Virus record (IMG/VR): IMGVR_UViG_3300017527_000761
Strand: one strand, 5' to 3'
Length of the DNA: 64,000 nucleotides
Origin: a virus
How positions within the stretch are numbered: position 1 is the first letter of the stretch; each line of letters opens with the position of its first letter. The notes under the pieces were generated by a model that worked only from the letters and a program-made list of their open reading frames with translations, had not been told where the DNA came from and did not search any database. Both the position numbers and the translations under genes were made by a program. Of this stretch, positions 1-55,464 are shown piece by piece.

Positions 1-501
1 GGTTTTACGTCCTCCACGCGCAACGCGCGCGATAGTATTTGCAGCAACTCCGTGGATACGCGCAGCTTCTGATGCACTTTCATATATAGCTATGAAGTTG
101 CCATCGAGGTCGTAAGAACAGATTTTCTTGGTACGTGTGCGGAAGGTATGGTGCGACATATTTTTATTTGTAGTACTAATTTTTTGACGCGTCGAACTAG
201 AATGTTTTTTATTCAGGACTCCACCAGTATCTAGATTATAACCGAAAGATCGATCCAGAGATTGGTACTTCAAGATATATAGTCTTTCTAATTCATCAAC
301 GTCTTCGGGGGCACAGAATGTGAGCCGTATAATTTTAAGATTATCCCATCCGTATTTGCGTATAGCATTATAAACAGGAGTATTGTATTTTCTTTCTTTA
401 GCAGTCTTTCTGTGATTAGACATTCGACTGGCAAAATTTACCGTTTGTCCAATATAAGATTTTTCATTCGGGAAAATAAATCGATATATTAAATGTTTCA
501 T
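1..501 (-). CDS. GIY-YIG homing endonuclease, partial (C-terminus lies beyond window start)
   Basis: Minus-strand ORF open to the window edge, so it is absent from the ORF track. Start around 499-501. N-terminus MKHLIYRFIFPNEKSYIGQT gives GIY...YIG, with downstream R/E residues and a NUMOD-like HTH (GVAANTIARVARGG). Confidence 0.7.
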   Translation of the reverse strand, partial: MKHLIYRFIFPNEKSYIGQTVNFASRMSNHRKTAKERKYNTPVYNAIRKYGWDNLKIIRLTFCAPEDVDELERLYILKYQSLDRSFGYNLDTGGVLNKKHSSSTRQKISTTNKNMSHHTFRTRTKKICSYDLDGNFIAIYESASEAARIHGVAANTIARVARGGRKT

Positions 502-595
502 TACTTTAATATAATCATATATTTACCCTAAGTCAAGTCATTTCTGTTAGTGGATTTGAATCCACGAAATTTAAGCTAAAATAGACCAGAAGGGC

Positions 596-901
596 CTATT
601 TTTCTTTCCGGTTTACTAGTTTGTTCCAAGTCTCGGTTGTTGTTAAAAAACAGGTTAATGCTAAACCTGAGGTTTGGTTAAATAGTACGTACACAAATTT
701 TTCAGCTATTCTGGTACAGTGCATTGAATACTTACCTTTTCTTGAAAGTACAAAAGGTTTTTCTTTCTTTAGTTGCTTGAGTAACTTTTTGTATTCTTTG
801 TCACTCATTTGTATGTCGTACCTTTCTTTTAATCTTTCCGCAAAATGTTCACTACTGTGCTTGTAGTTTGCTTGAAGTATTAGGTTGGCATACATTTTCA
901 C
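596..901 (-). CDS. hypothetical protein (101 aa)
   Basis: ORF with AAAGGAG SD upstream and a conserved promoter-like motif upstream. Antisense ORF 621..866 judged spurious. Confidence 0.5.
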   Translation of the reverse strand: MKMYANLILQANYKHSSEHFAERLKERYDIQMSDKEYKKLLKQLKKEKPFVLSRKGKYSMHCTRIAEKFVYVLFNQTSGLALTCFLTTTETWNKLVNRKEK

Positions 902-927
902 TCCTTTCTAATTAATGATTATATACT

Positions 928-940
928 ATTCTTATTCCAA
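928..940 (-). promoter_or_regulatory. conserved block-A motif TTGGAATAAGAAT (minus strand) after hairpin+T-run
   Basis: Copy 1 of 10. Preceded on the minus strand by GGGGGTGTAGTTTTCTCACCCCC-TTCTTTTT and followed by SD and ATG 901. Confidence 0.55.
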
Positions 941-959
941 TTCTTAAGCTAAAAAGAAG

Positions 960-985
960 GGGGTGAGAAAACTACACCCCCAACC
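960..985 (-). terminator. intrinsic terminator hairpin
   Basis: GGGGGTGAGAAAACTACACCCCC (plus-strand text) with a T-run on the minus strand. Confidence 0.55.
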
Positions 986-1054
986 TTTAACATATTTCCT
1001 GTTGTGGTGAATCATCAACGATCCAACCTTCTCGCTCGAATATTGACTCGTTAG

Positions 1055-1615
1055 TTAATTCAGAAATATGCTAAAACCGGCGACGACAGCGAATTGGTTC
1101 ATGCCAATTCGTCCACCGTCCCAATCTTCTGGCTCCATATTAAGAAGCAAATATTGTAGACCTATATTTAAGAGGGCCTGAGGGGCAACTTGAAATTTAA
1201 CTCCACCAACAGCACCATAAGAAAATCCTGACATAGTAGCACTACCTTCTCCGAAATCTGCGTCAGTAGAAGCATAACCGAGAAAAGCACCAATGTAAGG
1301 ATACATTTTATTTACTCTAAATACATATTGTGGAACTGCAAACAATCCCCAGGTGGTTACACTATTATCACCATGGCTTTGTGTTTGGAACATAGGCATT
1401 AAACCAAGTTCTATGCAATCGTAAACGAAGACACCGAGCATCGGTTCCACAGTAAAAGTAGAAGTAGAGTTTTCTGCTGTTTCTCCATCAAATACACTGG
1501 TTTCACTTGTGAATGAAACGTTACCGGATAATTCCCATTGTCCAGCTTTACCAAAATCCTGGGCACTGAGAGGGATGATAAATAAAATAGTAATGAGCAC
1601 GACTAGAGATTTCAT
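1055..1615 (-). CDS. secreted outer-membrane beta-barrel-like protein
   Basis: N-terminal signal peptide MKSLVVLITILFIIPLSAQ. Alternating hydrophobic/aromatic beta-strand pattern rich in G/Y/F, typical of small OMP beta-barrels. SD AAGGAGA. Confidence 0.5.
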   Translation of the reverse strand: MKSLVVLITILFIIPLSAQDFGKAGQWELSGNVSFTSETSVFDGETAENSTSTFTVEPMLGVFVYDCIELGLMPMFQTQSHGDNSVTTWGLFAVPQYVFRVNKMYPYIGAFLGYASTDADFGEGSATMSGFSYGAVGGVKFQVAPQALLNIGLQYLLLNMEPEDWDGGRIGMNQFAVVAGFSIFLN

Positions 1616-1660
1616 AATCTCTCCTTGTTAGTTTAAAAATCGAGCTTTAAGCCCTGATAT

Positions 1661-1675
1661 ATTTCTTATGCCAAA
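1661..1675 (-). promoter_or_regulatory. conserved motif TTTGGCATAAGAAAT
   Basis: Follows hairpin GGGCCTCGGGCCC plus T7. Upstream of ATG 1615. Confidence 0.55.
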
Positions 1676-1686
1676 TTTTTAACCTA

Positions 1687-1705
1687 AAAAAAGGGCCCGA
1701 GGCCC
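1687..1705 (-). terminator. intrinsic terminator hairpin
   Basis: GGGCCCGAGGCCC flanked by A7 on plus (T7 on minus). Confidence 0.6.
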
Positions 1706-1709
1706 TTTA

Positions 1710-2237
1710 TCAATTTATTAAAGTCTTTCCAGAATTTATATCGAATACAGGAGTTTCAGTTTCGGTTTTCAGTTCCTTTTCAGTCATCTCTTCTTCCACC
1801 TCATCCATAGCTTCCATTATTGGACCTTCAGCTTTTTGCATTAAAGTTTGCATAAAAGTACCCATAATAACCATTTCTTTTTTCGACAGTTCAAAACTTA
1901 CTTCCTTGAATTCATCGAGAGACATAGTAGCCATTGTTTTCATGCGTTCATGTTTGGCAGGAGCCAATTCATCATGAATTTCTTTCATAGAAACAAGTTG
2001 GTTTTCTGTCATACTAGCCATGAATTCTGCTTGAGCTTTTTGAATTTCTTCTTTAGACGCACCAGAGTTTTCAAACTCTATAGCATCTCGACTAGCTGCT
2101 TTCATTATGCTTACTATATCTTTTACTTTTTTAGTTAGAAATTCTTCATCATTTATAAATTTATTAAATAAATCAGTAGTTTCTTTTTCACATAGTTGTA
2201 CAAAATCAATAGATTCTTGAGTCATTAAATTCTCCAT
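1710..2237 (-). CDS. acidic helical hypothetical protein
   Basis: E/K/M-rich ORF. Second in-frame ATG (about 2225) has a better GGAG SD. Confidence 0.5.
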   Translation of the reverse strand: MENLMTQESIDFVQLCEKETTDLFNKFINDEEFLTKKVKDIVSIMKAASRDAIEFENSGASKEEIQKAQAEFMASMTENQLVSMKEIHDELAPAKHERMKTMATMSLDEFKEVSFELSKKEMVIMGTFMQTLMQKAEGPIMEAMDEVEEEMTEKELKTETETPVFDINSGKTLIN

Positions 2238-2288
2238 CTAAAAGAAAGCGGGATTAATTTCCCGCTTTAAGTACATAGAGTCTTCGAC

Positions 2289-3530
2289 CTACTTAGTAGG
2301 CTTCGGATTAAAGTTTAAATCTTTCGCCGCTTGCATTGTCATAATTTCCATGAAAGACTGGGCGCCATTCTGACCGCTTGTACCAGTAGTTCCCATAACA
2401 GTTGTCGGTACCCAATTACCCTGATATTTAGATACAGCATCGGCCCACATTTGTTGAACCTTTTCATATGTAGCTAATTTCATAGATAGTTGACCATCGG
2501 CACTCATCACGAGACGCTTGCGTTCAGATTCACCTTGACCAAGTTTAATTTCTTTCATCTTGGTGAATTCGGCTGCTTCCATTTCAAGTCGTGCGACTTC
2601 TCGTTTCTGTTCAGCTTCAGTTATCATTTGAGCTTTGATAACCTCTTGTTTCCATTTAGAGATTGTGGCCTCTTTCTGGCCTTTCTTCTCTTCCTGGATC
2701 AATTGCTGTTCCTGCTTTTTAGTCTCAGCAATGGCGGTTTGAACCTCCATCTGAGCTTTTTGCTGAGCAGCAATCTGTAACATAATTGTTTCTTGATATC
2801 TAATTCGCTCTATTGAAACAGCAGCAATTTTTAGGCCAAATTTTTCAAACGGAGCCTCTTCTTGCCTTGCAATTCCGCCCGGCGATTGTACACTAGAATC
2901 AAGTTCCGCAATTTTTACATACTTATCTTTACCCGTGAATTCATCTTGAACTTTCTTCTCTATAGATTTAGTTTTATAAACTCCATTTCGAAGTTGATCC
3001 TCAATGTAGCGAATAAAATCTGTACGCTTTGCGGCGTAGGATTCATAACTATTCATAAGTGGACCAGTTGCAAACACAACCTTAGTAACGGTTGGCTTGA
3101 CAAGTTCATGAATTAGATTACGCATACTACCAAAAGTAGTGTGAATTAATCTTAGATGAAGATCATCTTTTGGAAACATAATACGTATACTTCCCGATAT
3201 GTAACCATTACCACCATCATTGAAGAGTACTGGAATTTCATCATCCTCTTCTTCACCCTGATTGTCTTTATCGGAAAACCAGATCTGAAAAGATTTCTGG
3301 TATTTAGTAGTTGATCCTCCCCATTGCCCTTTCAGGCCGGGAGTAGTCCAGAAAAGCAATTCACCAGATATTGGCATCTGATTTATCACAATTTCATCTG
3401 CAGGCACATCCTCAACAATCGATCCGGAAAATGATAAGAAGAATACTGCTATAACTATTAGTATAGCTCCTTTTACCAATTTTGCTGTGGAGGAAATTCC
3501 CTTGAATGAGAATAACTTGAGCAGACCCAT
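2289..3530 (-). CDS. SPFH/band-7 (stomatin/prohibitin/flotillin-like) membrane protein
   Basis: N-terminal TM helix, then an SPFH-like core and a long AQ/E/K-rich coiled coil (IAAQQKAQMEVQTAIAETKKQEQQLIQEEKKGQKEA). Confidence 0.55.
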   Translation of the reverse strand: MGLLKLFSFKGISSTAKLVKGAILIVIAVFFLSFSGSIVEDVPADEIVINQMPISGELLFWTTPGLKGQWGGSTTKYQKSFQIWFSDKDNQGEEEDDEIPVLFNDGGNGYISGSIRIMFPKDDLHLRLIHTTFGSMRNLIHELVKPTVTKVVFATGPLMNSYESYAAKRTDFIRYIEDQLRNGVYKTKSIEKKVQDEFTGKDKYVKIAELDSSVQSPGGIARQEEAPFEKFGLKIAAVSIERIRYQETIMLQIAAQQKAQMEVQTAIAETKKQEQQLIQEEKKGQKEATISKWKQEVIKAQMITEAEQKREVARLEMEAAEFTKMKEIKLGQGESERKRLVMSADGQLSMKLATYEKVQQMWADAVSKYQGNWVPTTVMGTTGTSGQNGAQSFMEIMTMQAAKDLNFNPKPTK

Positions 3531-3546
3531 AAGTGAGTTCCTTAAA

Positions 3547-3801
3547 TTAATGAATGATTGATTTAGTTGCTTCAGCCTTTTCTTTCAAGACTTTCGCTTC
3601 ATTTTCTTCTTCCCGAATTAATTGTTCGGCTTCAGAAATATCTTCTTTAGCATCGTAATATAATTCTTTGGCTTCATCAAGCTTATCTCGAGCTGTCTGA
3701 GCTTTTTTCCTTTTACTTTTTTTAATTAACCTATAAGTAATTATTAAAGGTATTAATATTACAACGCAAACAATAAAAATCTTTGCAATTGAAAAAAACA
3801 T
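3547..3801 (-). CDS. small membrane-anchored coiled-coil protein
   Basis: N-terminal TM segment (IAKIFIVCVVILIPLIITY), basic patch, acidic coiled coil. Immediately downstream of the SPFH gene. Confidence 0.45.
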   Translation of the reverse strand: MFFSIAKIFIVCVVILIPLIITYRLIKKSKRKKAQTARDKLDEAKELYYDAKEDISEAEQLIREEENEAKVLKEKAEATKSIIH

Positions 3802-3838
3802 AGTTTGTTTTCCTTTAATTTATTAAAGTGAATCTATA

Positions 3839-3854
3839 ATTCTTATACCTAAAA
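3839..3854 (-). promoter_or_regulatory. conserved motif TTTAGGTATAAGAATT
   Basis: Follows hairpin 3869-3893 plus T8. Upstream of ATG 3801. Confidence 0.55.
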
Positions 3855-3868
3855 CGTGAGCTAAAAAA

Positions 3869-3893
3869 AAGAAGGTAGCCTTGTGAGCCACCT
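3869..3893 (-). terminator. intrinsic terminator hairpin
   Basis: GAAGGTAGCCTTGTGAGCCACCTTC preceded by A8 on plus (T8 on minus). Confidence 0.55.
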
Positions 3894-4156
3894 TCAGTAA
3901 AGTCGCTAATTTCCTTCTCAATTTTTATCCCACCCGAGGTCACTAAGGACAACATTTTCGGAGACCTGTGAAACAGAACCGGATCTACCTAATCTTGCGG
4001 CAGTTGATAATAAAAATCAATAGCTCATTGATATCTATTGCTGGAAACCCGTACTTTATGGAACGAACGAAAGCTTGTTAATATATCCTGTACCAAACAG
4101 GCACATCAAGGTTACTTCCTCACTGTCTGTTTTTAGTTAAACGTTCCATTGTACAT

Positions 4157-4170
4157 ATCTTATACCAAAT
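4157..4170 (-). promoter_or_regulatory. conserved motif ATTTGGTATAAGAT with no downstream ORF
   Basis: Follows GGGGCCCC-TTTTTATTTT. Faces a 270-nt ORF-free stretch that ends at the 3869-3893 terminator. Confidence 0.45.
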
Positions 4171-4223
4171 TTTTAAAATAAAAAGGGGCCCCGGAGATTA
4201 TCTTGTAGGATATCGTGGTACAC

Positions 4224-4236
4224 TTCTTATACCGGA
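4224..4236 (-). promoter_or_regulatory. conserved motif CCGGTATAAGAAG
   Basis: Variant copy in the same intergenic region, back-to-back with the plus-strand TTGACA promoter. Confidence 0.35.
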
Positions 4237-4239
4237 AAG

Positions 4240-4268
4240 TTGACAAAAATAAAATATATTTATATATT
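4240..4268 (+). promoter_or_regulatory. sigma70-consensus promoter TTGACA-N17-TATATT
   Basis: TTGACA at about 4240, 17-nt spacer, TATATT ending about 5 nt before ATG 4274. The transcript would be leaderless or near-leaderless. Confidence 0.5.
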
Positions 4269-4273
4269 AAGGT

Positions 4274-5059
4274 ATGAATAAATGGGCTGTATCAAATAAG
4301 GTACTTCATAGAATGCTTGAAATTGCAAAAAGCAAAGGATTTAATTCTACTGAAAAATACTTGAAAAGTGTTGGCAATAAATCTGAAATTATCGATCTTG
4401 ATCCAGCTCCTATAAAAACTCTTCGTAAGACAATCACTTCAGAAGGTAAATATCCTAAACGGTTTTACAATCCTGATGGAACTGGTAATATAAAAAAATT
4501 AGAAAATTTCATTGAAAAAGGAAAAACTTTTAGAGGTGTTCCTGGAACCAAAAAAGATCCGATGGCGGGTTTATTAGATGACATGGCACATACAAAACTA
4601 CGCCAAAAAGAAATAAATAAGCCTGTAGACAGGTTTCATACTCTTCATCCAGAAAAAGCATATGTTACGGATAAATCTTCTGTAATGTATCAATCTACAA
4701 TAAAAGAATTAGAGACTCCGGCTAAAGAAGTTATATGGAGAACAAAAGGACACCACGGTCGTCCTGGTCAAAAACCAGATCCAAAATATTGGAATGACGT
4801 CAGAGGTATTTTTTTAAAAGGACAAACTCCGAAACAAAGCGGTAAATTTAAAGAAATACCAGGAAAGACTAGTAAAGTAGAAGATCAGTTTCCTACTTTC
4901 GAGCACATGACTAAAAATGAAGGACTTCCAAAAAAGGTTAGAGTTTACGTTCCACATAATAAAGCTAAAAGAAAATTTACAGACCTAGGCGTGATGAATC
5001 ACGCCCAGATCAAGTTAAAAGCTAAACAGCTTCAGGATAAGGCAAAATTGTTTTATTAA
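4274..5059 (+). CDS. basic lysine-rich hypothetical protein (261 aa)
   Basis: Only plus-strand gene in block A. Its 3' end overlaps the convergent gene 5022..5585. Strong promoter directly upstream. Confidence 0.5.
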   Translation: MNKWAVSNKVLHRMLEIAKSKGFNSTEKYLKSVGNKSEIIDLDPAPIKTLRKTITSEGKYPKRFYNPDGTGNIKKLENFIEKGKTFRGVPGTKKDPMAGLLDDMAHTKLRQKEINKPVDRFHTLHPEKAYVTDKSSVMYQSTIKELETPAKEVIWRTKGHHGRPGQKPDPKYWNDVRGIFLKGQTPKQSGKFKEIPGKTSKVEDQFPTFEHMTKNEGLPKKVRVYVPHNKAKRKFTDLGVMNHAQIKLKAKQLQDKAKLFY

Positions 5060-5585
5060 GATAATCTGCCTGTTCTTGTGTTTTACAGACTATTGTTATA
5101 TCTGTCATATATCTGCCGGGCCTTGTATGACCTTCTGTTCGATCTGCTATAGCAGCATTAAAACTATCAGCCCACTCTACTAGTGTAAGACCAGTTTTAC
5201 TGTGACCTATTAGAGGCATTGTAACATCTGTATTTTCTCCTCCAAACCCGTCAACGTTTAAAGTAGCTAGTGCATTTTCCATCATTTCCTGAAAAGTAGT
5301 TTGATGGGCGGTACCAGGATACCCAACTAATAATTTGTCAAAATTGTTCCCGGTTTTAAAGTAGTAAACAACTACAGTGGCATATTCAGAAACAACTTTA
5401 GATTCTATCTTATAATTTTCAAGACTATCTTCATCTAAAAGGGGTAGTACCTGAGACATCAGAGAAGTAGGGCTTTTACAATGTCCTCGAACATTTGATC
5501 CTACAAGAAGGCAGCTTGATGGGTAATCGAACATATTACCGATCACGATCTTTATCATGTATCCTCCATTTAAATTAATATACAT
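5022..5585 (-). CDS. possible macro-domain (ADP-ribose binding/hydrolase) like protein
   Basis: Weak resemblance to macro-domain segments (KIVIGNMFDYPSSCLLVGSNVRG, MPLIGHSKTGLT). SD GGAGGA. A motif-level guess only. Confidence 0.3.
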   Translation of the reverse strand: MYINLNGGYMIKIVIGNMFDYPSSCLLVGSNVRGHCKSPTSLMSQVLPLLDEDSLENYKIESKVVSEYATVVVYYFKTGNNFDKLLVGYPGTAHQTTFQEMMENALATLNVDGFGGENTDVTMPLIGHSKTGLTLVEWADSFNAAIADRTEGHTRPGRYMTDITIVCKTQEQADYLNKTILPYPEAV

Positions 5586-5593
5586 ATTCCACT

Positions 5594-5607
5594 ATTCTTA
5601 TGCCAAT
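5594..5607 (-). promoter_or_regulatory. conserved motif ATTGGCATAAGAAT
   Basis: Follows hairpin CCCCGCTAGGTCGGGGG (5656-5672). Upstream of ATG 5585. Confidence 0.55.
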
Positions 5608-5962
5608 ATTTAAGCTAAAGAAAAGAAGAAGTAAGCCAACTACCCCGCTAGGTCGGGGGTGTCCTTCTCTTTTCCTTACGCATATCTGCGCGGGTGATCT
5701 TCTTGTATATACCTAGTAGTCTTGTTTGTTTTTGGACATTCAGGGTTAGTTCTATTATTGTTGGCAAATACTATCCCGCCCTTCACTCATGAAGTATGTC
5801 ATGTGTATCTAAGTTCCACACAACATCCCTATAAGCTGCATAGATCTCAACTTTCTTAGAATGCGTGGCCAATGCAAGTTAAGACCGGGCCTGGCTTCTC
5901 TTTAGGCTTGTATGCCTAAATATATCCTTATTCTGATTCTCATCAGAAACTCTTGTATGAAG

Positions 5963-6238
5963 TTAAACATAACTCCATTTTTTAAAATCTTTTTTAAAAG
6001 AAATTAACTTGGTGCCTTTTTTAAAGACACCGTTTTGAAAATCTACCAAATCATATTTACCTTTATAATACTTAATTATTACCTGACAATTTTTATTAGG
6101 TAATTCTTTATAATGCCATTTTAAGTCATTAAAGAAGTCAATGACTATAGGTAGTATATCCATATTATATGATGATCCTTGTTGGAGATATTTTTCCCTG
6201 CCGAACCAAAAGAATTTTACGTAAAATTCTACTACCAT
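5963..6238 (-). CDS. hypothetical protein, start uncertain (internal Met at about 6163 likely)
   Basis: Overlaps the 3' end of 6165..6950 in another frame. Either a short gene starting MDILPIV or a frameshifted continuation. Confidence 0.3.
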   Translation of the reverse strand: MVVEFYVKFFWFGREKYLQQGSSYNMDILPIVIDFFNDLKWHYKELPNKNCQVIIKYYKGKYDLVDFQNGVFKKGTKLISFKKDFKKWSYV

Positions 6239-6950
6239 TTACTGAAGTTCGAAAATTACCGGTTTCTTTTTTCTTTTTACTTTTTCGTAAATTTACATTT
6301 GGAAAATAGATTATATCTGTTTCCGGAAATCTTTTTGCAATTTTAGGAAGAATATCATTTTCTAAATCAACCCTTTCTTTTATTGGTAATGATGTACCAA
6401 TGTTTCCTATAATTATATATTTAGGATCTGGAGTATCTTCTCTATCGTAAATGTAATACTCTCCGAGATATTCATTGGGGTTTTCATAATCTTTTTTATG
6501 GGTTTTTGACTCTGAAGCTAAACGCATGAAATCTGCTTTTCCTGCTTCTACCATTTCTCGTATTACTGTTCTATCATATAGATAAATAATTGGTTGATAC
6601 AATTCTTGTAATTTAAATCCTGCAGGCAAATAGTTATATTTACCTCGTTTTGCGTTCCACCATTTTAAGTCATAGGATCCTTGTAGATCTCCACAAAAAC
6701 ACATTGAACGTATAAAAGTTACGTTTATATGTCTGCCTTTATCTCTTTTATTTTTTTTATCCCTGGTGGGAGATACCTGATTTGTTAAGCCAGGAGTATA
6801 TGTATGTGCTAATATATTCCCGTGAGAAAAAAAGTGTGCTTGTAGTCTTTCGTCCAATTGCTTATAAGTTTTCTTTTTTTCTGTTGTTGCTCCTGCGCCA
6901 TAAATTCTGCCACAGCTTCTTATGTCTAGTATTATATATAGTTTTGACAC
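6165..6950 (-). CDS. hypothetical protein (261 aa)
   Basis: Long ORF. Its C-terminal 30 aa look low-complexity, so a possible frameshift near 6240. Long structured leader upstream. Confidence 0.4.
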   Translation of the reverse strand: MSKLYIILDIRSCGRIYGAGATTEKKKTYKQLDERLQAHFFSHGNILAHTYTPGLTNQVSPTRDKKNKRDKGRHINVTFIRSMCFCGDLQGSYDLKWWNAKRGKYNYLPAGFKLQELYQPIIYLYDRTVIREMVEAGKADFMRLASESKTHKKDYENPNEYLGEYYIYDREDTPDPKYIIIGNIGTSLPIKERVDLENDILPKIAKRFPETDIIYFPNVNLRKSKKKKETGNFRTSVNGSRILRKILLVRQGKISPTRIII

Positions 6951-7105
6951 AATGTCCTACTGGTTAATGTTTATAAATTATCATTGACTTACCGTAATAA
7001 TTTAGCCTTGTTTGGGCATTTTACTTTTTAATGTAAAAAGGAAAATGCCTTACCTTGGGACAGGGGGTAAGTGTATCCCGTCAATGCTTACGCGCAAATT
7101 CCATT

Positions 7106-7118
7106 TCTCTTATACCAG
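7106..7118 (-). promoter_or_regulatory. conserved motif CTGGTATAAGAGA
   Basis: About 160 nt upstream of start 6950, with a long hairpin (7016-7050) in the leader. Confidence 0.45.
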
Positions 7119-7195
7119 AAAATTTGAAATAATATTAATTTAAAAAGAAGAGGAGAAGCACAACATATGTTGCACAACTCCCCGAAACTCAAGTG

Positions 7196-7381
7196 CTAGT
7201 GGCCTAGCTCTTCTTCAATAAACTCATCGACACATTTAGTACACTGCTCCCCGCAATCGTTTTCATTACCTATACATATACACGGTTCAACATAATCATC
7301 TTCCCCATTTTGCAAGAACTTAATTTTGTTAGCCGTTTCTGGACTAACAATTGCCTGATCAGATCCAATGACAATAAGCAT
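7196..7381 (-). CDS. small Cys-rich protein (61 aa)
   Basis: C-x-C-x7-C-x3-C-x2-C cluster. SD AAGGAGAG. Conserved motif upstream. Confidence 0.4.
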   Translation of the reverse strand: MLIVIGSDQAIVSPETANKIKFLQNGEDDYVEPCICIGNENDCGEQCTKCVDEFIEEELGH

Positions 7382-7430
7382 ATGACTCTCCTTGAGGTGA
7401 ATAGGAATTTGATCGAATTAGAGTTTACTA

Positions 7431-7446
7431 TTTTCTTATACCTAAA
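7431..7446 (-). promoter_or_regulatory. conserved motif TTTAGGTATAAGAAAA
   Basis: Upstream of SD AAGGAGAG and ATG 7381. Confidence 0.55.
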
Positions 7447-7700
7447 AGTTCAAGTTTAAGGAAGGGTAGGGTAGGTAGGTATTTAAATAAATCCCACATA
7501 TACCATCATGATTATAGAAATCAGCAATGCGGCCTGAATTAACTTGACTATCATGTGAACCTCGCAAAAATTTAAAAAAATTTCGACCTAGAACTAAATC
7601 AAAAGAAAAAAATTAACTCGAGCATAACAGATCCCTTGAAACAAACGGGACCTTGCCAGCTCTATCAGCTCTAGATGCTAGGTCCCGTCTATGGAGGAGT

Positions 7701-8108
7701 TCAATCCCAGTAAAAAACAAAGTCATATGTATCGGGATTAATGTAATGATCAGGAGTGTTTACTTTTCTGTAAGCATCAGCAAAATGCTGAGTTCGATTT
7801 CGTAGTTGAGATACGGCTTTCCATACCCGAACATCTACGAGTATCAGAGATACCCATTCCATCTTGCAAAACTTTTCAAGTATCGCAGTGCCTTCAGGGC
7901 CTAAATCGTAGATTGGCCGTCTTTGAGCCCATAGTCCATCAATTTCTATTCCATTGTCATGTTCCCGTATTGAATTATACAGTTCAATATTCAGGTCAGA
8001 AGGACATGCAGGATAAATTACATCACCTATCCTAATTTCCTTATTCATCAAGTTAGCAAGTTGAAGTTTGGTATCTGGTATCTTGTGTATAGCAGCTGCA
8101 TATTGCAT
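7701..8108 (-). CDS. hypothetical protein (135 aa)
   Basis: ORF in the block A operon. No recognisable motif. Confidence 0.45.
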   Translation of the reverse strand: MQYAAAIHKIPDTKLQLANLMNKEIRIGDVIYPACPSDLNIELYNSIREHDNGIEIDGLWAQRRPIYDLGPEGTAILEKFCKMEWVSLILVDVRVWKAVSQLRNRTQHFADAYRKVNTPDHYINPDTYDFVFYWD

Positions 8109-8123
8109 ATCTGCCCTTTCATT

Positions 8124-8366
8124 TTATGATAGGATTACTGTTATCTTCTTGAACGCTAACAGTTTGCGTTTGTCCATGTTCAGGATTTCTTCAAAGTTAC
8201 TGAAGTAAACTACTTCTCCCCCAAAAGTCGCATATATCTGAGCATCACGACTCAAGCTGTGCGGAAGTAGTTTATGCGGGTCGATAGCGTATATACGAGT
8301 ATACCCTACCTTTTCATCAATCACTTCGAGTAAAAGTTCTATGTTCAGGCCAGTGTACAATTTCAT
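8124..8366 (-). CDS. hypothetical protein (80 aa)
   Basis: ORF. ATGA-type overlap with the upstream small ORF. Confidence 0.4.
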   Translation of the reverse strand: MKLYTGLNIELLLEVIDEKVGYTRIYAIDPHKLLPHSLSRDAQIYATFGGEVVYFSNFEEILNMDKRKLLAFKKITVILS

Positions 8367-8542
8367 TTCAAGCCCGCTTCTTGCATTAGCTCTTCTTTTT
8401 TATCTTTAAAATGTTCGGCTGTTTTCCTCAGAGTCTCTTCGTTCAGGGTTACGCCAGGAACTCTTGATTTCCACAGGTAAGCTATTAACTCATCTGAGTA
8501 ATCATACTCTTTCAAGATTTTTTCGAATTCTTCAAATGACAT
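8363..8542 (-). CDS. small hypothetical protein (about 59 aa, below ORF-track cutoff)
   Basis: GGAGG SD then ATG. MSFEEFEKILKEYDYSDELIAYLWKSR... Stop overlaps the start of 8124..8366. Hairpin terminator of the upstream gene just 5' of it. Confidence 0.3.
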   Translation of the reverse strand: MSFEEFEKILKEYDYSDELIAYLWKSRVPGVTLNEETLRKTAEHFKDKKEELMQEAGLK

Positions 8543-8589
8543 ATATCCTCCATTTTAAAAATGTGATGGAGTAGGCCCCATCACAAAAA

Positions 8590-9048
8590 TTAATTAATTC
8601 TTGTACAAACAACTTGCAATGTTTCTGAACGCCAATTGCAAGCAACTTCCCAAGTCAGATAAGTACAATTAAAATTATGTCCGGCGGTATACTTGTAGTT
8701 CACCCCGTAGAGCTTAAAAAATCTAATGTACTTTCCAAAAAGTTGATACAGATTTTCATATGTATCATGATGCATGAGCCTGAAATAATTTAGTTCTTCG
8801 TCCTCGAATGAAAAAATTATATCATCATCACCGTTTATCACTCCAACCCATTCATGCAGGGCTTCCTTACTTGAATCTGTTTTTGCTAGCATGCAAGATA
8901 CATCAAGTTCATATTTCATCAAGTCCTGAGCCTTGTAGAATCTCGGGTAAGCAAGGTTATTAGCTCCAGGGCAACCACATGATACAAGTGAATATATAGT
9001 AAAGAGTAATAAAGCCAAACCATAAGTTAATCTGAGTAAATTTTTCAT
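8590..9048 (-). CDS. putative lipoprotein
   Basis: Signal peptide with lipobox LVSC (MKNLLRLTYGLALLLFTIYSLVSCGC). Confidence 0.55.
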   Translation of the reverse strand: MKNLLRLTYGLALLLFTIYSLVSCGCPGANNLAYPRFYKAQDLMKYELDVSCMLAKTDSSKEALHEWVGVINGDDDIIFSFEDEELNYFRLMHHDTYENLYQLFGKYIRFFKLYGVNYKYTAGHNFNCTYLTWEVACNWRSETLQVVCTRIN

Positions 9049-9293
9049 GACTTACCTCCTGAGTAAGATTGTGCTTCTGAAATACCATCATCTATAAATT
9101 CACGAATTATTTCTTCTGGGATTTTAATGGTTATTTCGTGGGCAAGCCTGTTTCTTTCTTCGTCCGTTAGAGTTGTTGCTATTGTTCTTTCGAAAGACAT
9201 TTTTTCTCGGATACATCCGGACACATCAGTAAAAACAGCTTTGCATACTTTTTCGATTAATCCTCCCTCTCCTTCAAAATCACGACGCTTCAT
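9045..9293 (-). CDS. hypothetical protein (82 aa)
   Basis: ORF. GGAGGA SD. 4-nt overlap with the downstream gene. Confidence 0.4.
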   Translation of the reverse strand: MKRRDFEGEGGLIEKVCKAVFTDVSGCIREKMSFERTIATTLTDEERNRLAHEITIKIPEEIIREFIDDGISEAQSYSGGKS

Positions 9294-9317
9294 AGATCCT
9301 CCTTGTTAATAAAAAAG

Positions 9318-9345
9318 CCGACAAAATATGCCGGCTTAAAAAATT
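9318..9345 (-). terminator. intrinsic terminator hairpin
   Basis: AAGCCGACAAAATATGCCGGCTT flanked by A-runs on plus. Confidence 0.5.
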
Positions 9346-9362
9346 AATTCTCTTTATCTACG

Positions 9363-9376
9363 ATTCTTATACCTAT
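9363..9376 (-). promoter_or_regulatory. conserved motif ATAGGTATAAGAAT overlapping stop of 9373..10206
   Basis: Here the motif precedes, rather than follows, the hairpin+T-run (9318-9345). Confidence 0.4.
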
Positions 9377-10206
9377 AAATAGGAGTAAGTTCCGTAATTG
9401 TGTGTAGTATGCATCATCAAGACACATGTGAAATTTATGATTGCGTGTTTCTCATCGTTCAAGTGAATTACCATTCCATACACATCCGCAACAAATTGAA
9501 AGTTCTCGAACAATATATTCAGGTCTTCGTATTCTATACCTCCATGCCATTCAGCTATATACTCTACAATTGATTTCTGGTAACGTCGTAAGAATTCTCT
9601 AACTGTAATAGTATGTTCTGATGCTGGAATCTTGTTACGAGCAAGTTCTGCAAGTACACTAAAATAAGAATCCCAATGAACTGCGAGTTCTTCGTATTTT
9701 TCTGTCATTAGAGCTTTGGCAGATTCCAAGCTAAACTTTGCACGAGATTTCATAGGACGTTGTGGCACAACAGCATAACCAGAAAAAGTATCAAGTTTTT
9801 TATCTCTGTACTTCCATCGCTTGAGTAATTCCTTCTCTCTCAAGATGATAATTACTTTTTTCATACCACTGTCTACACACACGTACTTATCTTTTTCAAA
9901 TCCTACAACAGCAATCCAATGGCTCCACTTATCTACACAAAGAACAACTGGAAACCCTTCTTTCAAGTTAGATCGCAAATTAAAAAAAGAAGTCTCAGCA
10001 TCAGCACCTTCAGCAATTTCTTCGAAATCACAGTCATAGTAATTTGCTGCTTTTTCGAGCCCAATTTCATCGGTACCTTGCCACCAGGTGCTTCCTGCAA
10101 TCTCTTCTATATCTCGTTCGTCCTCCATCTTCCCGAGCATCACTAGTGCATACTTGAGAGCCAGAGGACCACATTGATAAGTCAAGGGCTGTTTATAAAA
10201 ACTCAT
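9373..10206 (-). CDS. papain-fold cysteine peptidase-like protein (C39-like)
   Basis: Q-x5-CGPLALKYAL (Gln, then Cys-Gly catalytic signature) and a later SHWIAVVG His motif, arranged as in C39/papain-like peptidases. Confidence 0.4.
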   Translation of the reverse strand: MSFYKQPLTYQCGPLALKYALVMLGKMEDERDIEEIAGSTWWQGTDEIGLEKAANYYDCDFEEIAEGADAETSFFNLRSNLKEGFPVVLCVDKWSHWIAVVGFEKDKYVCVDSGMKKVIIILREKELLKRWKYRDKKLDTFSGYAVVPQRPMKSRAKFSLESAKALMTEKYEELAVHWDSYFSVLAELARNKIPASEHTITVREFLRRYQKSIVEYIAEWHGGIEYEDLNILFENFQFVADVYGMVIHLNDEKHAIINFTCVLMMHTTHNYGTYSYL

Positions 10207-10209
10207 TTA

Positions 10210-11106
10210 CTAATATCTCCCGAAATTTATTTGATAAACCATCAAGCCGAGATCTCTCCATAATTCTGTGTTCCGTTCACGATCTTCAAATACCGCAGTT
10301 ACAAAATACTTGTCTTTAATTTTATTTTCATAGATTTCTTTTTTGATATTATAGTCATGTTCATAAGACTGATCTTCTGGCCTCATATATAATTCATCAT
10401 ACTCTATGTTATTATCGGCAAGCCATTTCTTTGTAGCTTCTCTTGAAACTTCACTTCTACCAGTAACTAAAAGTATTGCTGCTTCTGCTCTATGAATAAG
10501 ATCGACAAGAGGCATGTTTGCCATATCATTTGGAATGTGTTCATGATTGAATGGATCACGTCCAGCCTTGTGCAGAGCTAGAGTCTCATCAAGATCCACA
10601 ATAATTGCATCATCAAGATCAGTCTCACCATATTCATTCAGGTACATTTCAGTCTGAATTTGTCTCGGGGGTGCATAGTAATCATCATGTTTTTGAAAAT
10701 TAGAATATAAAAGCCAAAGTTCATTCCAGGGAGCTTCTGGTATTACGCCTATTTCGCGGTGAGTATTATTATACCAGCATACTTCGCTTTCAGTATTTAT
10801 TACATGCTCTCGTACACCTACGTCACCAACTCTTCGAGCAATACGTTGCATCATTGGAAATACATCTGGAGTAAGATTTGTATCGTCTATTACAACATCA
10901 TAGCCCATGTGTAACCAACTCTCAATCGCGTAATTACGTATACGCTTGATAACTTTTTCGTCTTTTGCATTATAGTCACTATTCTGCATCATACTTCTAA
11001 AGTCATCACGATTCAGGCGTTTAGCCTTGTGGTTTTGTACATATAATTTAGCCCATATAGATTTTCCACATCCGGGTGGACCAACCATTACAATAATATC
11101 AGCCAT
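10210..11106 (-). CDS. polynucleotide 5'-kinase / 3'-phosphatase (T4 Pnk-like)
   Basis: N-terminal P-loop VMVGPPGCGKSIWAK. C-terminal HAD-type DxDxT motif IIVDLDETLALH. Domain order as in T4 Pnk. Confidence 0.55.
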   Translation of the reverse strand: MADIIVMVGPPGCGKSIWAKLYVQNHKAKRLNRDDFRSMMQNSDYNAKDEKVIKRIRNYAIESWLHMGYDVVIDDTNLTPDVFPMMQRIARRVGDVGVREHVINTESEVCWYNNTHREIGVIPEAPWNELWLLYSNFQKHDDYYAPPRQIQTEMYLNEYGETDLDDAIIVDLDETLALHKAGRDPFNHEHIPNDMANMPLVDLIHRAEAAILLVTGRSEVSREATKKWLADNNIEYDELYMRPEDQSYEHDYNIKKEIYENKIKDKYFVTAVFEDRERNTELWRDLGLMVYQINFGRY

Positions 11107-11349
11107 TTACTTTTCTCCTCGTTTTCCTGTTGCAGACCTATCTTTTTTGGTCCTAACTCCACGTGCTTCTTGTGAAGTTACAATGATTGATTCTAGTTTA
11201 TTAATTTCGCTAGCAACTCTCTTTTTATCATTATCGTCGAGAGGTCTTTTTTCCTTGAGAGTTTTGCCTGTGCGTTCCATTTCTTTCAAGCGTGCAAGTG
11301 CACTAATTCGACGGTCATTTACACGACCTTTAGAATTTTTTTGTAACAT
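11107..11349 (-). CDS. small basic protein (80 aa)
   Basis: K/R-rich ORF co-oriented with the block. The antisense 108-aa ORF was rejected. Confidence 0.35.
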   Translation of the reverse strand: MLQKNSKGRVNDRRISALARLKEMERTGKTLKEKRPLDDNDKKRVASEINKLESIIVTSQEARGVRTKKDRSATGKRGEK

Positions 11350-11366
11350 TTAAATATATCTCCTTA

Positions 11367-11966
11367 CTATCTTCTGATTAATGACCCTCTTTTGCGTTTT
11401 GCTTCAGCAGCTAAATGGGTTTCCTTGTAACATCTAATTATGTCATGAATGGCTGCTTTTCCAGCATCATTTAGGGTACGAGTGCCTATCCCAGTAAAGG
11501 TATTTAATTCAAAATATTTTTTATCTGGATATGATATATCTATCCAGGATTTATCATATTGATACCATTCTTTTTTTTCTTGATCAAAAAAGAATACAGG
11601 TAAGCCTAGCAGTATTCCGGTTCCAATTGCCCAGGCAGTTCCACCTGCAGGCATAAAATTCTTTCCATCCATTATACCTACACCAAAAACTACTTCAGAA
11701 AATAATGATTGATAGATATCTCTTTGGAGGAATTTGATTATATGTGGGCGCGCGAAAGGTGGGTTACGGTGGATAAGTTTTCCTACTTTACTTACTACAG
11801 AATTAACTTCCTCAAGTTCTTCAAGAGTCAAAATTTTTCGACGGTCAGATGTAGTGGTATGTCCTTCAAATGAGTATGCGATAACTTCTATATCTTCTAT
11901 ATCACACAACTCTTCAAATAACATGTCAGCACCGGACGCACCGCCGGTATAACATTTTATATTCAT
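11367..11966 (-). CDS. SLOG/Rossmann-like protein (DprA/LOG/YpsA-type GGxSGxD motif)
   Basis: N-terminal YTGGASGAD glycine-rich motif as in SLOG-superfamily nucleotide-binding proteins. Low confidence. Confidence 0.3.
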   Translation of the reverse strand: MNIKCYTGGASGADMLFEELCDIEDIEVIAYSFEGHTTTSDRRKILTLEELEEVNSVVSKVGKLIHRNPPFARPHIIKFLQRDIYQSLFSEVVFGVGIMDGKNFMPAGGTAWAIGTGILLGLPVFFFDQEKKEWYQYDKSWIDISYPDKKYFELNTFTGIGTRTLNDAGKAAIHDIIRCYKETHLAAEAKRKRGSLIRR

Positions 11967-12012
11967 TTTTTTACCTAAAATTTAATTGTGGTCGTATTTG
12001 AGTTCTTATACC

Positions 12013-12027
12013 AAATTACCTGATAAT
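12013..12027 (-). promoter_or_regulatory. conserved motif ATTTGGTATAAGAAC
   Basis: Upstream of ATG 11966. Confidence 0.5.
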
Positions 12028-12366
12028 TGTGTTTATATGAGGGATTTTTTTCGCGGGCGCGGAAGCTTTACTGATAGTAATAGTGTTTGTATAATTCAGA
12101 TACATCTGTTCCTTGAGTAATCCAACTTCTCTATGTAAGTTATCGTATTGATCTTGCAAGGCTGAAATAGAAGATTTTTCTAGTTCTAGTTCTTCTTCAT
12201 TCAAGTTCTTATCCAAGACATCTTTATAACTACTTTTTATCAAGTCAAGGCATTTAGCTTGTTGTTTTTGTAAACTTTCCAAGTACTGTATATCCTCTTC
12301 AAGGATCTTTTTACTAAACATTTGAATCTCCTGACTTAGTCCAACTATTAATAATAGGAACTTCAT
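12016..12366 (-). CDS. coiled-coil hypothetical protein
   Basis: ORF. Probable true start at internal Met (about 12321), which avoids overlap with the upstream gene. Confidence 0.4.
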   Translation of the reverse strand: MKFLLLIVGLSQEIQMFSKKILEEDIQYLESLQKQQAKCLDLIKSSYKDVLDKNLNEEELELEKSSISALQDQYDNLHREVGLLKEQMYLNYTNTITISKASAPAKKIPHINTIIR

Positions 12367-12616
12367 TAGCTTTCTTTATGTTAATTTCTAAATTACGCTG
12401 AGCATCTTCTTTATCCTGAATAGTATTTTGAAGCATGGCCTTTATTTTTTCAATTTCATTTACGTCTTCTTCGGTAATAAGTTTTTTCATTAGGTCATTG
12501 ATCTTGACTTGTAAATTATCTTCTATCTTCAAGAAAATAAGATTGTCAATATCTTTATTTCTTCTGTCGTTCAAGAGAAATGTATGTAGTGGATCATATT
12601 TTAAGGAGTTTGCCAT
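12314..12616 (-). CDS. coiled-coil hypothetical protein (100 aa)
   Basis: First gene of the minus block, next to the divergent promoter region. Confidence 0.4.
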   Translation of the reverse strand: MANSLKYDPLHTFLLNDRRNKDIDNLIFLKIEDNLQVKINDLMKKLITEEDVNEIEKIKAMLQNTIQDKEDAQRNLEINIKKANEVPIINSWTKSGDSNV

Positions 12617-12632
12617 ATTTTAATGTGATTAC

Positions 12633-12661
12633 TTGACAATCATTGTAAATATCGCTAAATT
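12633..12661 (+). promoter_or_regulatory. sigma70-like promoter TTGACA-N17-TAAATT in divergent intergenic region
   Basis: TTGACA at about 12633, 17-nt spacer, TAAATT. Lies about 35 nt upstream of the 12695 start. Confidence 0.45.
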
Positions 12662-12694
12662 AAACAAGCGAGATATTTTTTAATATAACTAAAA

Positions 12695-16657: not shown

Positions 16658-17148
16658 TGAGTTCTGGAATTTACAAAATAGCTAACAAAATAACTGGAGA
16701 TTTTTATATTGGGTCAACTAACAATATAACAAGAAGATTTGGGGAACACAAAACCCATTTAAAAAACAATAAACATCCGAATATAATATTGCAAAGGGCA
16801 TGTAACAAATATGGCTTGGAAACTATGCACTTTCAACCTGTAGAATTAGTTAAGGATATAAATAATTTAACTACTAGAGAGCAGTATTATTTGGATACAT
16901 TAGATCCTAAATATAACATTCGAAGAGTGGCTAACAATAATTTAGGTATGAAACATTCTGGTAAAACAAAAGAAAAAATATCTAAAAGTAAAGCACAGCC
17001 ATTTAAAATTATAAGTCCCACAGGGAAACTAATTTCAGCCATAGGACTTAACAGATTTTGCAGAGAACATGACTTAGATGCAGGACATCTAAGTAAAGTT
17101 ATTCTCGGTCAGAGGAAATCACATGTTGGGTGGACACAAGCTTTGTAA
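16657..17148 (+). CDS. GIY-YIG homing endonuclease (free-standing)
   Basis: SGIYKIANKITGDFYIGST (GIY-x10-YIG), conserved R and E, C-terminal DNA-binding-like region. 1-nt overlap with the ligase stop. Confidence 0.75.
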   Translation: MSSGIYKIANKITGDFYIGSTNNITRRFGEHKTHLKNNKHPNIILQRACNKYGLETMHFQPVELVKDINNLTTREQYYLDTLDPKYNIRRVANNNLGMKHSGKTKEKISKSKAQPFKIISPTGKLISAIGLNRFCREHDLDAGHLSKVILGQRKSHVGWTQAL

Positions 17149-23271: not shown

Positions 23272-23300
23272 TTGACAGTAACTAAACAAAGGAGTATATT
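23272..23300 (+). promoter_or_regulatory. sigma70-consensus promoter TTGACA-N17-TATATTCAATTA
   Basis: Perfect -35/-10 with 17-nt spacer. The spacer overlaps the SD AAAGGAG of gene 23306. Confidence 0.4.
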
Positions 23301-29459: not shown

Positions 29460-29488
29460 TTGACAATAAAGACAAATATAACTATATT
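29460..29488 (+). promoter_or_regulatory. sigma70-consensus promoter TTGACA-N17-TATATTCAATTA
   Basis: Same extended sequence as the 23272 promoter. A 59-nt leader with SD ACGGAGA precedes ATG 29548. Confidence 0.55.
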
Positions 29489-43111: not shown

Positions 43112-43130
43112 CAATATATTCTAATAAACC

Positions 43131-47486: not shown

Positions 47487-47515
47487 ATAGAAAGGGGGCG
47501 TAAGCCCCTCTTCTA
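47487..47515. terminator. bidirectional intrinsic terminator at the convergence of plus and minus blocks
   Basis: ATAGAAAGGGGGCGTAAGCCCCTCTTCTAT palindrome flanked by A-run and T-run. Confidence 0.55.
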
Positions 47516-50047: not shown

Positions 50048-50851
50048 TTATTCAAGGTACTCTCTGAGCTGGTTTGAGTATTTATCGTCTTTTAATTTAC
50101 CAATTGTTTTTTCTTTTATTTGTCTTATTCTTTCTCTAGTTAAACCTTTGTCGACACCAATTTCTTTTAAAGTATAGGGTCTAATTTGGTCTATACCAAA
50201 ATACATTATTAAAATATCTCGTTCTCTTTCAGAAAAATCATCTAAAATATATTTTAGTTCATCTTTTATATCTTCAATTGTTATTTGCATGTCTGCTGCA
50301 GATTTATTAGGAAGTATATGATTTAGATCTTTGTCATTTTCTGTCCTTGGTGCATCTATGTCAATAATTCCATAATTATATTTAACAGCATTCGCTACTT
50401 CTTCGTTATCTGTAAGTTCTAACAATTCGTCGGTTGTTAGGCTTCTACCTAATTCTTGTTCTAATTCTTTTTTAACTTTATTTAATTTAGATAATTCCAT
50501 AATAACATTTAGAGGTAATCTTATTACTCTAGCATTATCATGAATTGCTTTCATAATTGACTGACGAATCCACCAGACAGCATAAGTTATAAATTTAAAG
50601 TTACGATCAACTTCGAATTTTTTAAAAGCTGTAATTAATCCGAAGTTTCCTTCTTGTATTAGTTCGTCCAGTGGTAACCCTTGATTTTGATATTTTTTAG
50701 CCACACTTACCACAAACCTCAAGTTCCGATTCATAAGTTCGTCATAGGCTTGTCTGTTACCAGCTTTAGCTTTATCTATAACTATTCTTTCTTCTTCTTT
50801 TGTAAAAGGAGGAAACTTTCGGATTTCTTTTAAATATTGTTCAATTGCCAT
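50048..50851 (-). CDS. sigma-70 family RNA polymerase sigma factor
   Basis: Region 2 ([41 protein letters not shown]) and region 4 HTH ([28 protein letters not shown]). Confidence 0.8.
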
Positions 50852-55463: not shown

Positions 55464-55464
55464 G

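Follow-up and report, generated by a model that had tools for sequence, protein, structure and literature searches.

What are the ten nearly identical short elements that lie on one strand at the left end of the viral DNA IMGVR_UViG_3300017527_000761 (IMG/VR), and, provided that they are promoters, which sigma factor reads them? The stretch analyzed here (hereafter the window) comprises 64,000 nucleotides. A sequence-only reading of it had proposed that the elements are promoters of one class which give the small genes of the leftward arm (block A) transcription units of their own, often as terminator-promoter cassettes. This proposal is supported by the present analysis, and from sequence, position and conservation we consider it very probable that all ten elements are promoters. 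We name them class II, as opposed to canonical class I promoters located mainly elsewhere in the window. As to the reader, we give about an even chance to a model in which class II constitutes a single promoter class for a bacterial multisubunit RNA polymerase (RNAP) acting without a -35 box, with the sigma factor of the phage reading class I and another factor, most likely the sigma factor of the host, reading class II. The window has a G+C content of 35% and comprises three gene blocks:

Block A, 1-12616, minus strand: small accessory genes, among them those for outer membrane protein (OMP) beta-barrel-like, SPFH, C39-like peptidase, polynucleotide kinase/phosphatase (PNKP) and NADAR/DprA-like proteins.
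Block B, 12695-47470, plus strand: genes for methyltransferase, ligase, GIY-YIG and terminase (the last at 21718), as well as the structural genes.
Block C, 47513-64000, minus strand: dNMP kinase, family A polymerase, sigma70-family protein, ThiF/JAB, ribonucleotide reductase (RNR) and sugar-modification genes.

All ten copies that had been described were located. They lie on the minus strand, with the first G of a GG pair at plus-strand coordinates 938, 1672, 3849, 4166, 4233, 5604, 7116, 7442, 9373 and 12012, and are named by these positions in the following. The exact motif GGNATAAGAA occurs nine times in the window, as compared to 0.95 +/- 0.93 times expected from 100 dinucleotide-preserving shuffles, none of which reached nine. 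Eight of the nine matches are found on the minus strand of block A, and none on the plus strand. The ninth (25460-25469, minus strand) is antisense within a block B gene. Together with two one-base variants, GGTATAAGAT at 4166 and GGTATAAGAG at 7116, the eight exact block A copies account for the ten sites. A 15-column matrix was built from these and used to scan the whole window. The ten sites score 17.2 to 20.4, the next best hit reaches 14.4 (inside the RNR coding sequence at 56850), and all others stay at or below 10, with the ninth exact match at only 9.3. First-order Markov simulations yield 0.79 hits of at least 14.5 per window, versus ten real hits of at least 17. The score distribution is thus bimodal and strand-specific, and sites are limited to the first 12 kb. 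An origin by chance in A/T-rich DNA, with equal frequency within genes on both strands, does not agree with these counts, as the ten high-scoring matrix hits are confined to the sense strand of block A. The reported absence of the motif from blocks B and C is confirmed, the matrix finding no site in either. An eleventh site lies about 35 nt beyond the left end of the window, at the end of a GIY-YIG gene (position 5662 of L027; L numbers denote related or overlapping sequences). The ten sites, given from -18 to the predicted +1, are:

11998..12016, minus strand: GG at 12012-12011; overlaps the 3' end of the open reading frame (ORF) 12016-12366; ATG 11966 lies 36 nt downstream; score 19.8; orthologues L026 7699 / L032 672, L034 7829 and L041 221.
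9359..9377, minus strand: overlaps the TAG stop codon that ends the C39-like gene 9373-10206; a terminator-like hairpin (9337-9315) comes next, ahead of gene 9045-9293; score 19.3.
7428..7446, minus strand: upstream of ORF 7196-7381, with a Shine-Dalgarno (SD) sequence and ATG about 50 nt downstream; no upstream terminator; score 20.4.
7102..7120, minus strand: variant GGTATAAGAG; after terminator 7142-7183 (upstream hairpin -19.2 kcal/mol); a leader or non-coding stretch of at least about 150 nt precedes ORF 6165-6950; score 18.3; orthologue L026 1206 / L032 7165 with the same final G.
5590..5608, minus strand: after a terminator-like region (about 5617-5678); gene 5022-5585 has its SD and ATG (about 5558) 36 nt downstream; score 19.3; orthologue L034 15113.
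4219..4237, minus strand: back-to-back with the plus-strand class I promoter 4240-4268; score 17.7.
4152..4170, minus strand: variant GGTATAAGAT; followed by about 250 nt without a convincing ORF, up to terminator 3871-3895; score 18.1.
3835..3853, minus strand: 22 nt past terminator 3871-3895; ATG of gene 3547-3801 lies 38 nt downstream; score 20.4.
1658..1676, minus strand: past terminator 1690-1708; upstream of the OMP beta-barrel gene 1055-1615; score 19.9; orthologue L032 9941, before an OMP homologue.
924..942, minus strand: past terminator 951-981; upstream of ORF 596-895; score 17.2.

The motif had been described as usually following a hairpin and a T-run. A GC-rich hairpin with a T-run is indeed present within about 40 nt upstream of five sites (938, 1672, 3849, 5604 and 7116), and a sixth, 4166, is preceded by GGGGCCCC and T5, which do not fold into a hairpin. 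The remaining four (4233, 7442, 9373 and 12012) have no upstream terminator, with 9373 and 12012 each overlapping the 3' end of the gene before it. SD and start codon are located 33-51 nt downstream of sites 938, 1672, 3849, 5604, 7442 and 12012. The complete order of stop codon, terminator, motif, SD and ATG, which had been attributed to most copies, is found at just four (938, 1672, 3849 and 5604). The longer bipartite form reported for some copies does not hold either: its upstream half, TTAGCTTAA, is the tail of the terminator. The same tail follows the minus-strand terminators at 580 and 47483, with no motif downstream, and hence belongs to the terminator and is ruled out as one half of a promoter.

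In order to establish the register, 44 non-redundant sites from the window and its relatives were pooled and the first G was numbered -14. The consensus reads wwTt G-14 G-13 (T>C>A)-12 A-11 T-10 A-9 A-8 G-7 A-6 A-5 nnn T-1 R+1. G-14, G-13, A-11, T-10, A-9, A-8, G-7 and A-6 are invariant and A-5 is present in 38 of 44 sites; as the matrix columns served for selecting the sites, their invariance is partly circular. Position -12 is variable, as had been noticed before (T 34, C 8, A 2), position -15 is occupied by T (27), A (14), C (2) or G (1), and positions -17 and -18 are A or T in every site. Outside the search matrix, T is found at -1 in 32 of the 44 sites and a purine at +1 in 43 (10 of 10 in the window). 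This pyrimidine-purine dinucleotide is placed exactly 7 nt past the last base of the hexamer NATAAG, a spacing that corresponds to the geometry of sigma70-family holoenzymes, and we take the purine 14 nt downstream of the first G as the predicted start. The logo displays no TTGACA-like signal 16-18 bp upstream; the sole upstream feature is the T-run left by the terminators.

Compared to sigma70 promoters, class II shows A-11 in all 44 sites and a predicted purine start about 7 nt downstream. In place of the T at -7 it shows G in 44 of 44 sites (a column of the selection matrix), and the score distribution of the window contains no T-7 variants at scores 10-17. We know of no characterised primary sigma factor that prefers G at this position. 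Regarding the TG of extended -10 elements at -15/-14, G-14 is present throughout and T-15 in only 27 of 44 sites. The suggested resemblance to an extended -10 element extends to G-14 and the lack of a -35 box. The register had to be amended, and in addition to the variable -12, G-7 as well as the conserved G-13, A-6 and A-5 do not comply. Two further assignments were rejected. If the motif is taken for a -35 box (TTGGNA), only site 5604 has a suitable -10 element 16-18 bp downstream, and none of the consensus sequences of sigma54, sigma28, sigmaB, sigmaF, sigmaH and SP6/T7-type promoters, as known to us, fits in sequence or spacing.

With the ligase, the OMP-like and the C39-like proteins as starting points, syntenic relatives were recovered. 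The block A genes in common with L026/L032 show only 25-62% amino acid identity, and yet this relative carries ten class II sites, without exception on the sense strand. Four of these are orthologous to sites of the window: one ahead of the NADAR gene, one on the C39-like stop codon, one ahead of the homologue of 261 amino acids (where the variant final G recurs), and one ahead of the OMP gene. The same pattern of conservation is seen in L034/L035, L037, L038, L039, L040/L041 and L042. The motif just past the C39-like stop codon is kept in six relatives (L032, L034, L037, L038, L040 and L041) while the preceding coding sequence drifts; at orthologous positions in general, the flanks diverge and the motif stays. 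The 180-kb contig L099/L193, whose sigma factor is 48% identical to that of the window, has almost no genes in common with block A and carries six sites in 14 kb, each 30-45 nt upstream of SD and ATG. High-scoring sites in the relatives of block A all lie on the gene-sense strand (e.g. 10 of 10 in L032 and 6 of 6 in L099). A scan of IMG/VR with a 15-mer returned mostly single hits by chance, one real multi-site contig (L099, six sites, which also carries the sigma gene) and two plausible ones (L137 and L158). BLAST with the cassette consensus gave chance hits only. The conservation in relatives is strong evidence that the motif is functional, and its position and orientation fit a promoter.

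A function other than that of a promoter may be considered at this point: an RNA-level signal for processing or translation, an operator, or a repeat within mobile terminator cassettes. Terminator-like or T-run sequence within about 50 nt after sites 9373, 4233, L004 5500 and L038 2211, as well as four tandem cassette copies in L039, would be in line with such a function. On the other hand, the motif would be poorly transcribed where it directly follows a hairpin with a T-run (five sites) or GGGGCCCC with a T-run (a sixth). It is asymmetric and has no dyad, its pyrimidine-purine dinucleotide is conserved at the canonical start distance, orientation and spacing to SD and ATG are strict, and sites in diverged 3' ends of coding sequences are conserved independently of any cassette. 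Taken together, a non-promoter function appears very improbable to us.

The class I promoters provide the counterpart. The pattern TTGACW-N17-TAWATT has six matches in the window versus 0.18 expected, all of them correctly oriented, and the statement that blocks B and C carry canonical promoters of the type TTGACA-N17-TATATT is supported:

12633..12661, plus strand: TTGACA-N17-TAAATT, at the start of block B.
23272-23300, 29460-29488 and 43092-43120, plus strand: in the structural region.
4240-4268, plus strand: for a plus-strand ORF within block A.
508-536, minus strand: serving the GIY-YIG gene located to the left of position 1.

Orthologous class I copies are present in L025, L026 and L001. 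The class displays a perfect -35 box (TTGACW), a spacer of 17 bp, no conservation from -17 to -13, and T at -8 almost always. At 4240 and 23272, and likewise at L099 713, an ATG starts 5 nt past the -10 element, which suggests that leaderless mRNAs may be made from these promoters. Class II and class I promoters stand back-to-back and divergent in two places, window 4219-4268 (4233/4240) and L099 690-745 (703/713). In the 4233/4240 pair the predicted starts are about 56 bp apart and the -35 box of one lies within the spacer region of the other, and two polymerases should hence exclude each other. Such a pair could act as a temporal switch.

The plus-strand ORF served by 4240-4268 (4274-5059, unannotated) is an opposite-strand ORF inside block A. 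Of the two GIY-YIG endonuclease genes (16657-17148 on the plus strand, and one just left of position 1), the latter has, like this ORF, its own class I promoter, and none was found for 16657-17148. All three are probably mobile insertions. At the junction of blocks A and B, the divergent region of 78 bp (12617-12694) is conserved with L026. What could be assigned there is confined to the class I promoter of the plus strand and a hairpin that follows it; no promoter for the first two genes of the leftward arm (12016-12616), which have no class II promoter, was found in it.

Which factor reads class II? The sequence-only reading had offered two answers, namely host RNAP or the sigma factor encoded by the phage:

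50048..50851, minus strand: sigma70-family gene with regions 1.2, 2, 3 and 4 and no region 1.1 (Pfam and alignment to SigA/RpoD structures).

This protein was compared to 113 homologues (44-100% identical). The -35-contact helix of region 4.2 is invariant among them, with contact residues identical to those of primary sigma factors, and so are the Q437 equivalent and the W-dyad. The position of H455 is always N, and the equivalents of E458, T440 and R441 vary. Among phages with class II sites the E458 equivalent is M/S/A/S/G/N and the T440 equivalent M/F/V/I/I/L, with G-14 and G-13 unchanged. Judged from these alignments, the presumed contact residues and the class II bases do not appear to be conserved together: the contact positions in regions 3.0 and 2.4 vary among class-II-bearing phages and G-14, G-13 and N-12 do not, and class II offers no -35 box to the invariant region 4.2. 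An invariant reader of the -35 box combined with variable extended -10 positions fits class I and not class II, and on this ground we tentatively assign the phage sigma factor to class I.

The opposite assignment would be a simple cascade. Class I would be read by the host sigma70, host RNAP would make the phage sigma factor, and this factor would then activate block A through class II as its cognate promoter. Phage sigma factors normally differ in specificity from those of the host, and class II is the non-canonical class. Class II sites near the sigma gene are concentrated in the subclade of at least 43% identity, and a canonical promoter is located about 110-460 nt upstream of the sigma gene in L185/L193, L196, L210, L215, L216, L233 and L250. 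The family departs from primary sigma factors at H455 (N), S428 (I), T432 (V), T440, R441 and region 1.2, and no other sigma paralogue was found in the window, in L029 or in eight relative loci. Despite these points we consider such a cascade unlikely, given the invariant -35-contact helix and the missing -35 box. Among class-II-bearing phages, the residues that should contact -14/-13/-12 vary freely and the motif is invariant, the family-wide substitutions occur also in members from Bacteroidota phages without class II, and class I stands before the structural genes, on which a phage sigma factor usually acts.

The Bacteroidota phages are informative in this context. The sigma relatives L222, L240 and L244 carry 7-17 copies of TACCTTTG per 20 kb, and in L222 and L244 there are 12-17 near-invariant copies of TTTG-N19-TACCTTTG per 20 kb, of the Bacteroidota host type, including upstream of the sigma module. 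Both are without SD sites. Thus, the sigma70-like family occurs also in phages of Bacteroidota, whose own sigma factor skips canonical promoters, and these cousins may use the canonical sigma70-like factor as an orthogonal late system. A search within 10 kb of the sigma gene revealed nothing convincing in terms of canonical promoters in these relatives. The near-invariant host-type promoters of L222 and L244 also imply that numerous invariant promoters in this phage family can be of host type.

We return to the model in which the host sigma factor reads class II. Class II promoters and intrinsic terminators would divide the leftward accessory arm into numerous short transcription units insulated from each other. 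Class I would serve the structural and the homing-endonuclease genes as well as the start of block B, and would be read by the phage sigma factor 50048-50851. Class II would be read by a holoenzyme present at infection, containing the sigma factor of an SD-using host, which would make block A an arm for early or host-takeover functions. In agreement with this, the genes served look like early, counter-defence or takeover genes, and class II sites are found upstream of the sigma gene in many relatives (3-5 kb upstream and on the same strand in L003-L007, L185/L193, L189, L191, L194 and L195). Of the two answers offered by the sequence-only reading, the phage sigma factor is thus disfavoured by its invariant -35 helix and its varying extended -10 contacts, and host RNAP is possible only if its sigma factor accepts G-7.

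Several points weigh against this model. The class II start site is inferred from sequence. To our knowledge, G at -7 contradicts every characterised primary sigma factor, so a host reader needs an uncharacterised specificity. No host was identified by comparison with cultured phages, by the OMP-like protein, by the epimerase or by BLAST with the cassette. Class II sites near the sigma gene are concentrated in the sigma subclade of at least about 43% identity, with single matrix hits in five more distant loci; this would be equally expected of a sigma-dependent motif and fits either assignment. Class I lies directly upstream of the sigma gene in L185/L193, L196 and several distant relatives, which a simple cascade reads as host-type class I and sigma-dependent class II, and which the model favoured here can accommodate only by autoregulation of the sigma factor. 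Finally, about 31.5 kb of the 103.7-kb genome lie outside the sequence scanned and could encode another sigma-like factor.

The last point leads to a further alternative, in which another phage factor encoded in these 31.5 kb or in small unannotated ORFs, either a minimal sigma factor similar to gp55 or gp28 or an appropriator of the host sigma factor, reads class II, and block A is a middle or late class similar to the T4 late promoters. The T4 late promoter consensus TATAAATA is read by gp55 with gp33 and the sliding clamp. Class II is a -10-only element of similar geometry and shares six of eight bases with this consensus as known to us, its invariance is near-absolute with a bimodal score distribution, and many ORFs have no family match; a factor of this kind could come from the genes 12016-12616, which are not preceded by class II. 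Yet no candidate protein was found in the ORFs scanned: a gp55/gp33-type factor was absent from Pfam/PHROG scans of about 50 of the roughly 89 ORFs of the window and from the paralogue search (no second sigma paralogue in the window, L029 or eight relative loci), and the scans of unannotated ORFs yielded no transcription factor. The genes served are accessory or counter-defence genes rather than late ones, and the strictly conserved host-type promoters in L222 show that invariance needs no phage factor. We regard this alternative as improbable, too.

Either way, it is conceivable, with somewhat less than even prospects in our estimation, that class II represents a promoter specificity not yet described for any sigma factor, without a -35 box and with obligatory G-14, G-13, G-7, A-6 and A-5. 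It would then belong either to a non-canonical housekeeping sigma factor of a host from an uncultured SD-using lineage, with the phage sigma70-like factor as an orthogonal late system, or to an undiscovered phage sigma-like factor.

Some transcription units of the leftward arm, which also contains small membrane peptides and several non-coding units, seem to lack a protein product. Between the tandem class II promoters 4233 and 4166, a unit of about 40 nt starting from site 4233 (window 4180-4219, minus strand) reads ACCACGATATCCTACWAGATAATCTCC(Y)GGGGCCCC followed by a T-run. It is about 90% identical in L032 and L034 and about 75% in L037, in comparison to 25-62% for the neighbouring proteins. 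The tandem arrangement is kept in L032, L034 and L037, and the unit itself is also present in L031/L032. The unit displays no ORF, no stable fold or hairpin and no covariation, and its CU-rich stretch (AUCUCC) could pair with SD sequences. Long stretches without convincing ORFs are found at 3900-4152, 5620-5960 and 6951-7102 (all minus strand), after class II promoters or between a gene and its terminator. They are candidate phage non-coding RNAs; Rfam searches (gathering thresholds and E <= 1) gave no match for the non-coding units. The block 5860-5910 (caggcccgg..cttaacttgca..ggcc) recurs in L032 8695-9000 and L034 14790-15100 as a conserved element, and in these relatives a class II promoter of its own belongs to it; the counterpart of this promoter in the window looks degenerate (AGAATAAGGATA at about 5940). 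In L039, a set made up of a terminator, a class II promoter and a transcript of about 110 nt is repeated four times in tandem (6278-6869); these repeats may constitute an array of small RNA genes. Terminator-like hairpins 20-50 nt past the predicted start at 9373, in L004 (5500) and in L038 (2211) imply that some units may yield short RNAs or be attenuated.

The sigma gene belongs to a conserved module (50048-59217, minus strand), also found in L004 and L185, that comprises RecU, dUTPase, RNR, two small ORFs, a protein of 690-792 amino acids, a small ORF, JAB, ThiF/E1-like, an ORF of 67-97 amino acids, sigma and PolA. The protein of 690-792 amino acids (window 52788-54944) has no family match, and a JAB deubiquitinase-like and ThiF pair adjoins the sigma gene. 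On the strand of block C, about 12 genes that code for glycosyltransferases, methyltransferases, epimerases and dTDP-sugar enzymes are clustered in window 59274-63987 and L029 826-12932 (past window position 64000), and could serve the modification of DNA or of surface glycans.

A sigma factor identical to that of the window is present on a metagenomic contig of 103,690 bp. When this contig (Ga0216253_10000103) is mapped via L029, window positions below about 10727 fall past its end. The window apparently spans the contig ends, and this suggests that the genome is circular or terminally redundant, or else that the assembly is a different one. The related uncultured phages form a clade with genomes of 50-180 kb and, where membership is established, a G+C content of 30-38%. 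Near-identical DNA was not found in cultured phages, and the nearest cultured phages for polymerase, sigma factor and terminase all show less than 40% identity and hence give no clue to the host. The OMP-like protein matched only itself and one relative, and for the sugar epimerase a comparison with 185,000 genomes gave hits in scattered phyla, none of them above 38% identity.

To find a conserved promoter motif in one arm of a phage genome is, by itself, routine phage genomics. The present data provide a precise and testable promoter definition for a widespread clade of uncultured phages, whose genomes are split into two orthogonal promoter classes. If class II is of host type, it would give access to the promoter code used by a bacterial lineage so far unknown and explain the canonical sigma70-like gene in these phages; if it is read by a phage factor, it would represent a new sigma specificity. 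In addition, promoter-plus-terminator units without an ORF are flagged as candidate phage small RNAs.

Among known systems, the extended -10 (TGn) promoters of sigma70/sigmaA (E. coli galP1; the -16 region of Gram-positive bacteria and Campylobacterota) resemble class II in the lack of a -35 box, G-14, the common T-15, and A-11, T-10, A-9 and A-8 matching TATAAT, with a purine start 7 nt past the hexamer and A/T-rich sequence upstream. They differ in that class II has G-7 for a nearly invariant T, invariant G-13 and A-6, A-5 in 38 of 44 sites, a dispensable T-12, and T-15 in 27 of 44. T4-type late promoters share with class II a single, near-invariant -10 element of about 8 bp, with six of eight bases identical, the lack of a -35 box and a similar start distance. 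Unlike these, class II precedes accessory or early-looking genes, carries an extra GG at -14/-13, and reads (T)ATAAGAA, with G and A where the octamer TATAAATA has A and T; moreover, the polymerase of the phage belongs to family A, which implies that the phage is not T4-like. The Bacteroidota promoters (-33 TTTG / -7 TAnnTTTG) of L222 and L244 have an 8-bp element from -12 to about -5 beginning with TA, likewise in many near-invariant copies before small phage genes and together with a sigma70-like gene of the same family. Their sequence is different, class II lacks the -33 element, and the phage studied here uses SD sites whereas L222 has none. With the early or host-takeover arms of large lytic phages (the SPO1 terminal-redundancy module and the early regions of T4 and T5), block A shares many strong promoters and terminators before small accessory genes, adjoining a divergent junction; the early promoters of these phages are of the canonical host sigma type, whereas here the canonical class is located elsewhere. 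By comparison of sequences, class II is thus best described as a putative -35-independent element of the -10 type that departs both from sigma70 promoters, by its G at -7, and from the octamer of T4 late promoters.

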